Assembly (NCBI GenBank): GCA_030066775.1
Contig: JASJAY010000011.1
Coordinates: 13,047 to 77,046 of the forward strand
Direction: 5' to 3'
DNA from: Planctomycetota bacterium
GTDB lineage: Bacteria > Planctomycetota > PLA2 > JAEUHO01
DNA: 64,000 nucleotides
Shown here in pieces: positions 7,117 through 7,738 of this stretch; the stretch's first letter is position 1, and each line of letters begins with the position of its first letter. The notes under the pieces were generated by a model. It saw only the letters and a program-made list of their open reading frames with translations, was not told where the DNA came from and did no database searches. Made by a program: the position numbers and the translations under genes.

Positions 7117-7170
7117 CTCAAGTTGAGAGGCGCGTCATGCAAGTTGCGCAGTGCATTCTCAAATTGAGAG
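7117..7170. promoter_or_regulatory. pair of palindromic sites CTCAAgTTGAG / CTCAAaTTGAG (41 bp apart) in the low-GC region upstream of the histone-like gene
   Basis: Read directly: ctcaagttgagag at 7117-7129 and ctcaaattgagag at 7158-7170, flanking atgcaagttgcgcagtgcat. Confidence 0.4.
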
Positions 7171-7342
7171 TCCGAACGTGCACAACCACGTCCGAATGAC
7201 CGCTTGGAGGGGTGCGGCACGGAAGTTGTATGTCCGCCAGGGCGTGCATGCTGTGCGCGCGCACCGTGCATGCGTCACCGCCTACGTGACGAAAGCGATC
7301 GATCGCTCAGCCCTGCTGGGCACAAGGAGGCAAGAAACACAC

Positions 7343-7738
7343 ATGGCTGCAAGGAAGAAGAAGGCCACGCGCCGCAAGAAGGCCACGAAGCGTCGCACGA
7401 CGCGGAAGAAGGCAACTCGCAAGCGCCCGGCCGCTCGTAAGAAGAAGGCCACCCGGAAGAAGAAGGCGACCCGCCGCAAGAAGGCGACTCGCAAGAAGAA
7501 GGCGACGCGCAAGCGCAAGGCCACCCGGAAGAAGAAGGCCACTCGGAAGAAGAAGGCCACCCGGAAGAAGAAGGCCACCCGTCGCAAGAAGGCCACTCGC
7601 AAGAAGGCCACGCGCAAGAAGGCGACTCGCAAGAAGACGACTCGCAAGAAGGCCACCCGCAAGAAGGCCACGCGCAAGAAGGCCACTCGCAAGAAGGCAA
7701 CCCGGAAGAAGAAGGCCACGCGCGCCCGTCGCAAGTAG
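7343..7738 (+). CDS. lysine-rich histone H1-like / nucleoid-associated repeat protein (about 22 tandem KKATRKKK-type repeats)
   Basis: AAGGAGG RBS 7 nt upstream of ATG; protein is almost entirely (K)KATRKK repeats like Hc1/BpH1/AlgP-type bacterial histone-like tails; ORF track gives a longer 7151..7738 frame. Confidence 0.7.
   Translation: MAARKKKATRRKKATKRRTTRKKATRKRPAARKKKATRKKKATRRKKATRKKKATRKRKATRKKKATRKKKATRKKKATRRKKATRKKATRKKATRKKTTRKKATRKKATRKKATRKKATRKKKATRARRK
7359..7730 (+). repeat. tandem 24-bp (8-codon) coding repeat, about 15-20 copies
   Basis: Nucleotide-level repetition aagaaggccacccggaagaag.. throughout the CDS. Confidence 0.7.

Follow-up and report, generated by a model that had tools for sequence, protein, structure and literature searches.

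The locus described here raises two questions: what a bacterial protein built almost entirely of lysine-rich repeats does, and how the gene that encodes it is controlled. A sequence-only reading of the window (the whole stretch of 64,000 nucleotides that was analysed) had suggested an H1-like, DNA-coating product that is held down by a repressor. The features of the locus are collected in Table 1.

Table 1. Position, strand and basis of the features at the polybasic-protein locus.
Feature	Position	Strand	Basis or remark
Site 1, distal enhancer-like palindrome CTCAAGTTGAGAG	7117-7129	.	centre about -119 from predicted start
Site 2, proximal enhancer-like palindrome TTCTCAAATTGAGAG	7156-7170	.	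centre about -78 from predicted start
Sigma-54-type promoter GGCACGGAAGTTGTAT	7216-7231	+	-24 GG at 7216-7217; -12 reads TTGT, not TTGC
GCATGC pair: GTGCATGC ... GTGCGCGCGCAC ... GTGCATGC	7244-7273	+	about +4 to +33 of predicted transcript
Small hairpin GCCCtgctGGGC (7310-7321), then SD AAGGAGG (7324-7330)	7310-7330	+	
Polybasic repeat-protein CDS, 131 aa	7343-7738	+	composition, in-frame GC3, SD/ATG/N-terminus/frame shared with orthologs
Intrinsic terminator: 13-bp GC-rich stem, then TTTCAATTGG	7763-7802	+	
NtrC-type sigma-54 response regulator (REC, AAA+, HTH_8), presumed activator	7842-9347	-	Pfam
PAS-HisKA-HATPase histidine kinase, presumed sensor	9344-10783	-	4-bp overlap with regulator gene

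The polybasic open reading frame

The 131-aa product is composed of 51 lysines, 31 arginines, 24 alanines, 23 threonines, one methionine and one proline, with no acidic residue and no hydrophobic residue other than alanine. Lysine and arginine together constitute 63% (about two-thirds) of the chain, and the net charge is about +82. The protein consists of about 20 units of two kinds, KKATR (15 bp) and (K/R)KKATR (18 bp), with three of five or four of six residues basic in each, and the repeats fill residues 5-127, non-repeat termini being absent. The DNA had been described as a 24-bp tandem repeat, which does not hold: the units are 15 and 18 bp long, and Tandem Repeats Finder returned periods of 15, 18, 30, 45 and 54 bp with a match of 76-85% over about 7405-7723. 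The copies are imperfect, the longest exact repeat inside the ORF being 29 bp. All lysine codons are AAG (51/51), while the alanine, threonine and arginine codons differ at the third position between units, so that the variation is mainly synonymous. GC3 is 0.88 in the coding frame, which is the norm of the genome, and the other frames give values of 0.42 and 0.61. The GC content of the CDS is about 63%. The ORF at 7343-7738 is protein-coding.

The window protein has no match in Pfam at E <= 10 or in NCBIfam, and the Pfam search revealed no globular domain, the winged helix of Linker_histone included. Exact-sequence look-ups for the K-rich proteins found no record in the protein collections searched. 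A HMMER search over 1.84 billion representatives gave only 27 weak partial matches, most of which lay in the tails of larger proteins, and a family could not be built from them; a second very large protein search gave only 14 weak matches. Most of the weak matches are KKATR-like tails on DksA, SWIB and other proteins. The K-rich family is one that is invisible to Pfam and NCBIfam.

Orthologous loci and the length series

The related loci were reached via the closest homologs of the neighbouring activator (58-86% identity) and come from independent assemblies; all genomes involved are uncultured. A metagenome scan with a receiver-domain alignment returned five orthologous loci, three of them too short. 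In every related locus long enough to show it, a K-rich ORF adjoins the activator. The product has 102 aa in L085 (repeat KKAAKRKP(A)R), 126 aa in L086 (repeats KKKATRR and KKKARRKKKRR) and 133 aa in L087 (KKAVRKKATRKKAA), where the K-rich gene and the activator lie on the same strand; it is partial in L083 (repeat KKATR). In L088 it is reduced to 21 aa (MAKKKKAKRKTAKKKARAKKK), and short forms of 21 and 20 aa are found in L091 and L093, respectively. The ortholog products span 20-133 aa with 56-79% basic residues, and each lineage has its own higher-order repeat period (30/66, 33/87 and 42/54 bp).

The orthologs share the SD GGAGGCAGA, followed by an ATG, a start of the form MAA(R/K) or MAKKK, and the reading frame. 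In each of them, a strong hairpin of 12-15 bp and a T-rich tail come after the stop, with differing stem sequences, so that the structure is kept and not the sequence. Because of the shared SD, ATG and start, the lineage-own periods and the hairpins with T-rich tails, the K-rich gene is a real, monocistronic gene that codes for protein and whose length evolves fast. It is present in eight independent assemblies from different samples and is therefore not an artefact of one assembly, such an artefact having been named beforehand as one of the things that would count against it. It had also been proposed that the length may vary by repeat slippage. The variation stands, from 20 to 133 aa among relatives with a different unit per lineage. 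Repeat amplification in each lineage may repeatedly have ballooned a peptide of ~20 aa to >130 aa, or the protein may instead have shrunk. In L085, a 60-bp tandem repeat of 4.5 copies with 99% identity (11545-11816), absent from the window, separates the K-rich terminator from the activator gene, at the 3' end of the latter.

The neighbouring activator and gene context

The adjacent gene encodes a receiver, a sigma-54 AAA+ domain with a GAFTGA-type loop and a C-terminal HTH_8, the combination that defines a bEBP (Pfam: Response_reg, 1.4e-24; Sigma54_activat, 2.9e-68; HTH_8, 3.6e-12). The protein is 100% identical to a Planctomycetota MAG protein (NCBI), and an exact-sequence look-up of it in the protein collections searched returned nothing. 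Its HTH_8 region is highly conserved among orthologs, and about 60 more distant homologs (P0074-P0134, 53-57% identity) have an HTH that is nearly the same. The sigma-54-contact loop (around residue 250) reads GAYTGA, as it does in close and more distant homologs. Variants of the GAFTGA phenylalanine are reportedly the subject of a 2009 paper by Zhang et al. The GAYTGA form is a natural functional variant in HrpS (PMC3105312). In the window, this loop is found together with a promoter that has no canonical C in its -12 element; co-variation of the two is possible and is mentioned as a lead only.

The orthologs of the activator (58-86% identity) always flank the K-rich gene and are usually paired with a PAS histidine kinase. 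The adjacency of activator and K-rich gene persists through an orientation flip (L087), the loss of the kinase (L086) and the insertion of a DedA gene (window). In the window, the N-terminus of the kinase (10500-10783, minus strand) carries a low-complexity, R/K/A/G-rich extension of ~90 aa before PAS, for which the orthologs have a different one or none, and no clear correlation was found between this basic extension and long K-rich proteins. A scan of contigs with the full-length activator gave, among the matches listed, generic NtrC paralogs of <=45% identity, with no K-rich ORF or composite motif, and these served only as a negative control.

The genes on the opposite flank of the K-rich gene encode a DedA/VTT membrane protein and a Kdo/WaaP-type kinase. 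The locus contains no linked polyphosphate or ribosome genes, and the neighbourhood of the related loci holds no conserved repressor gene. Two adjacent weak RdgC-like ORFs at 3693-5311 (plus strand) are convergent with the Kdo-type kinase gene in the window, while in L085 and L088 an RdgC-like gene comes after the Kdo gene and shares its strand. This difference in gene order reflects a local rearrangement together with the DedA insertion beside the K-rich gene.

The sigma-54-type promoter and the twin palindromes

A canonical sigma-54 promoter has GG at -24 and GC at -12 in a GG-N10-GC spacing (TGGCAC-N5-TTGCW). The element of the window, GGCACG-N4-TTGTAT, has the GG-N10-G spacing right for sigma-54 and is conserved in seven loci, and the pattern GGCAC-N5-TTGYW has a single match in the 64 kb when both strands are scanned. 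None of the seven loci has the canonical C of -12, which is replaced by T in four of them and by A in three, and GGCAC---AGTTG is invariant among the six aligned orthologous loci. The proven sigma-54 promoter of E. coli pspA, TGGCACGCAAATTGTATT, also has TTGT at -12 (PMC2831329). With the second G of the GG set as -24, the start is predicted near 7241, which places the centres of the palindromes at about -119 and -78. A search of 6700-7900 gave no sigma-70-like promoter, and rpoN was not seen within the 64-kb window. A further sequence at 6936-6953, TGGCACtgcctgTTGA, resembles a sigma-54 -24 element; its -12 spacing is wrong (GG-N10 gives TG), and the resemblance is probably due to chance.

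The two CTCAAnTTGAGAG palindromes lie in the low-GC intergenic region upstream of the ORF. Both of the near-identical copies reported earlier were found again, at 7117-7129 and 7158-7170, the latter (CTCAAATTGAGAG) being contained in site 2. The 64-kb window has no other such sites; a search that tolerates one mismatch gives four strand-matches versus 0.07 expected, a number reached by 0 of 100 shuffles. No copy of the motif precedes the kinase-regulator operon. From seven loci anchored on one motif, the consensus is (C)TC(A/G)A-n-TTGAGAG for site 1 and TTCTCA(A/T)-n-TTGAGAG for site 2, with the columns TC-A-TTGAGAG of site 1 invariant in the six aligned loci. To our knowledge, TTCTCAA-n-TTGAGAG matches none of the known activator binding sites.

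The order of site 1, site 2 and GGCAC-N5-TTG is common to the window, L085, L086, L087, L088, L091 and L093. Site 1 starts 41 bp before site 2 in the five loci with both sites scored, and the promoter GG follows the start of site 2 by 55-57 bp. These three blocks are the invariant columns in an alignment that is otherwise 54% identical and in which the flanking sequence diverges. A regular expression for the composite motif, run over 1.42 Mb in 169 sequences that include about 155 unrelated NtrC or receiver-domain loci, matched the orthologous loci alone. The distance from promoter to ATG is 127-243 nt across loci and 658 nt in L086 (8200-8858), where an ORF called between the two (169 aa, no Pfam match) looks spurious. 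Together, these features point to a self-contained, monocistronic unit that is most likely transcribed from an activator-dependent sigma-54 promoter.

Leader and terminator

The GC content drops to 58-59% in 7000-7300, compared with 70-75% in the flanking genes and 70.1% in the whole window. A low-GC stretch had been placed at 7117-7340; the dip is real, but it extends over about 6800-7340 and is the entire intergenic region. The predicted leader is ~102 nt long in the window and up to about 640 nt among the loci. The GCATGC pair noticed earlier is present, with GTGCATGC at 7244-7251 and 7266-7273 and a perfect palindrome, GTGCGCGCGCAC, at 7253-7264 between the copies. The region folds as a nested hairpin (MFE of -24.5 kcal/mol for a 60-nt segment). 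In the window, this fold does not outdo shuffled sequences (z -0.33), L085 being the one locus with a marked value (z -3.1). Different GC-rich palindromes occupy this position in the orthologs. The pair may form a stabilising stem-loop at the 5' end, or it may be an operator or a further site of protein binding.

A small hairpin of 4-8 bp lies directly 5' of the SD in every locus, with a differing sequence (GCCCtgctGGGC in the window, GCGTCTGC..GCAGACGC in L087, CCGCCttGGCGG in L088 and GGTCCC..GGGACC in L091), and may represent a leader structure that is conserved among the loci. No Rfam family matched either strand of 6000-8500 at E <= 1. The pentamer CGTGC is enriched on the plus strand of the window in 6800-7345 (10 copies versus about two expected, with one copy of the complement GCACG) and occurs 13 times in L087 (7600-7740); as a conserved motif it was rejected, no enrichment being seen in L085 or L086.

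Comparison with known polycations and regulatory systems

Lysine-rich H1-like repeat polycations are already known, with Hc2, BpH1, AlgP and DdbA as examples. For linker histones, no Linker_histone match was obtained (Pfam, E <= 10). For Hc2, the Pfam model PF07382 (gathering score of 40 bits) and the presence of non-repeat N- and C-terminal segments were used; the proteins of the window, L085 and L086 had no match to the model, and that of L087 scored 12.2 bits (E = 0.2). Consecutive lysine-rich pentamers or hexamers, an evenly spaced charge and rapid length variation are Hc2-like. For Hc1 and AlgP, there is no dimerisation or coiled-coil domain at the N-terminus and there are no KPAA-type repeats, and the protein has a single proline (Pfam, NCBIfam). 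The description as an H1-like KKATRKK-repeat product is therefore apt as far as an extremely basic, repeat-built and H1-tail-like chain is concerned, whereas membership in Hc1, Hc2, AlgP or H1 is not demonstrable by Pfam and NCBIfam. The homolog search against AlgP, Hc1 and BpH1 that had been advised likewise gave no demonstrable homology (Pfam, NCBIfam, HC2 model).

The likeness to Hc2 (HctB) and BpH1 lies in tandem lysine-rich pentamers and hexamers with A, T and V, in repeats without acidic residues, and in a length and repeat arrangement that change fast between relatives (PMC2848022). The organisms belong to the same PVC superphylum as that of Hc2, and conditional expression, which is developmental for Hc2, would be a further parallel. 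In contrast, the pentamers of Hc2 have two basic residues of five, as against three of five or four of six in the window, and Hc2 has non-repeat ends (24 aa at the N-terminus and 69 aa at the C-terminus) that the window protein lacks. The hctB gene is sigma-28-dependent, not sigma-54-dependent. With H1 C-terminal tails and protamines, the protein shares a domain-less or disordered K/R polycation with A and T (or S/P), from which charge neutralisation and the condensation of nucleic acid are expected. It differs in having no winged helix and in being dominated by lysine, protamines being arginine-rich; the likeness is compositional, the protein being bacterial and showing no evidence of common descent.

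AlgP, PhaF and DdbA resemble it as bacterial lysine/alanine repeat tracts that bind polyanions. They differ by an extra folded or coiled-coil domain and by KPAA or AAKP units, the window protein being repeat only, and no description of sigma-54/EBP control was found for them in the literature searched. KKATR-type tracts are seen as tails on DksA and SWIB domains, and the closest matches, P0001, P0002 and P0010, show an H1-like tract plus DksA with KKATRKKK repeats, like DdbA. This H1-like-plus-DksA architecture is that of DdbA, a characterised nucleoid protein of Streptomyces (PMC3643593). On the regulatory side, the E. coli psp/zra systems offer a parallel in a promoter near the pspA form (GGCACG-N4-TTGTAT), tandem upstream inverted repeats within about 120 bp, and an adjacent activator. 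They differ from the locus in their effector, which is PspA or ZraP and not a polybasic repeat protein, and the activator here has a receiver domain and the GAYTGA loop.

With 56-79% basic residues and no folded domain, the products are more protamine-like than Hc2, BpH1, AlgP, PhaF and DdbA. This make-up suggests that the protein most likely serves, once induced by a signal, as a polycation to coat and compact a polyanion; DNA is the most probable such target, at close to an even call.

Proposed mode of control and alternative explanations

The enhancer of a sigma-54 activator (UAS) is made of inverted repeats in tandem, some 70-150 bp ahead of the start, to which the cognate EBP binds. The twin palindromes agree with this in position, duplication, palindromy, conservation and linkage to an EBP gene, as judged from the sequence. 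Because of their fixed spacing to a sigma-54-type promoter and the NtrC-type activator that always lies adjacent, enhancer sites, centred at about -119 and -78, are a better reading of them than operators, and this geometry argues for control by activation. The adjacent activator most likely binds them, given its kept adjacency, conserved HTH_8 and GAYTGA loop; another EBP of the organism may conceivably be the binder in its place. In the resulting model, the kinase would sense a signal with its PAS domain and phosphorylate the NtrC-type activator encoded next door, which would dock on the two palindromes of 13-15 bp (consensus TTCTCAA-n-TTGAGAG) and remodel the sigma-54 RNA polymerase at GGCACGGAAGTTGTAT (7216-7231). 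The predicted transcript would comprise the ~102-nt leader, a strong SD, the 131-aa ORF and the intrinsic terminator. The domain-less polycation would then neutralise and compact a polyanion in the manner of a protamine or a histone-H1 tail, with chromosomal DNA as the leading candidate. Among these steps, we infer the binding of the activator to the palindromes, the start, the inducing signal and the target of the protein. Taken as a whole, the model of a signal-induced sigma-54 unit for a polyanion-coating polycation is somewhat more probable than its negation. Points that weigh against it are the non-canonical -12 element, an rpoN not seen in the window, the lack of the palindrome motif ahead of the kinase-regulator operon, the 20-21-aa products of three loci, the lack of a family-model match and the KKATR gene of L002 without a sigma-54 promoter.

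The palindromes and the GCATGC pair had been interpreted as signs of tight repressor control, that is, as operators that silence a toxic DNA-coating protein. The sites are indeed palindromic, duplicated and conserved; the GCATGC pair, at +6 to +33, lies where a roadblock repressor could sit, and in related loci this place is taken by other palindromes. However, the twin palindromes are located 55-57 bp upstream of the only promoter-like element and not over it, at a helical-phase-like fixed spacing that is typical of enhancer sites; there is no sigma-70-like promoter in 6700-7900 to occlude, and what is conserved nearby is an activator gene and not any repressor gene. A sigma-54 promoter is silent without its activator, so a repressor is not needed, and the operator reading is improbable. 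Still less credit is due to the idea that the transcript is a regulatory RNA, like the LuxO/sigma-54-driven Qrr sRNAs, with an incidental ORF, or that the repeat is an assembly artefact. A short monocistronic unit from sigma-54 promoter to terminator, a long and variable leader (102 to about 640 nt) and the absence of the exact protein from the protein collections searched would suit these ideas. They are opposed by the conservation of SD, ATG, frame, N-terminus and GC3 of 0.88, which the leader sequence does not share, by the synonymous differences between repeat units, by the lack of an Rfam match and by the eight independent assemblies that carry the gene.

A different target under the same regulation, that is, polyphosphate granules (AlgP-like) or RNA and ribosomes (PhaF-like control of translation, or a small basic protein associated with ribosomes), is rather unlikely; it is the main rival to DNA. 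AlgP, with the H1-like repeats of Pseudomonas, acts on polyphosphate granules (PMC9239181), and PhaF of the same genus acts on mRNAs (PMC12818456). Hc2 and BpH1, proteins of rapidly varying length built of lysine-rich pentamers, bind DNA, and Hc2 binds RNA strongly as well (PMC2848022). In three loci, the product has 20-21 aa, which is short for a chromatin protein and more like a small basic ribosomal or RNA-binding peptide; NtrC-type control would also suit a starvation response. Against a non-DNA target stand the lack of linked polyphosphate or ribosome genes and the KKATR fusion partners DksA and SWIB, which are associated with DNA or RNA polymerase, while the sequence itself does not discriminate between polyanions.

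Significance

The factor that condenses the nucleoids of planctomycetes and other PVC bacteria is an acknowledged open question (PMC3177640). In its boldest form, the model amounts to a so far undescribed "bacterial protamine" switch in a Planctomycetota lineage: induced through a two-component system and sigma-54, a domain-less polycation (up to 79% K+R) would condense the nucleoid, or would form coacervates with RNA or polyphosphate. This proposal is tentative and rather doubtful. If true, it would represent a free-living PVC counterpart of the chlamydial developmental condensation by Hc1/Hc2 and a concrete candidate in the long search for what condenses PVC nucleoids. As a candidate, the locus offers a defined on-switch and a predicted activator site on the DNA, along with natural variation in length, from 20 to 133 aa, that would suit structure-function work, and the genome-wide copies of TTCTCAAnTTGAGAG would define the regulon. 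New here are the proposed two-component/sigma-54 wiring, a product that has no domain apart from its repeats, its extreme density of charge, and the range in length from 20 to 133 aa; no published example of a lysine-rich H1-like repeat protein with dedicated two-component and sigma-54 wiring was found in the literature searched. The locus also teaches that conserved palindromes upstream of genes are not operators by default.

KKATR genes outside the orthologous loci

In L001, from a distant organism whose activator is 38% identical, a kinase and an activator are followed by a textbook TGGCACGcaagATGCA promoter, with repeated sites upstream, and then by a KKATR-repeat ORF. The KKATR gene of L002 has no sigma-54 promoter, so the regulatory link recurs, as in L001, and is not universal. 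At L001:10001-10639, an ORF with a receiver domain reads in frame, with no stop, into the KKATR ORF, which has its own SD and ATG; this run-through is either a real fusion or two products of one message.
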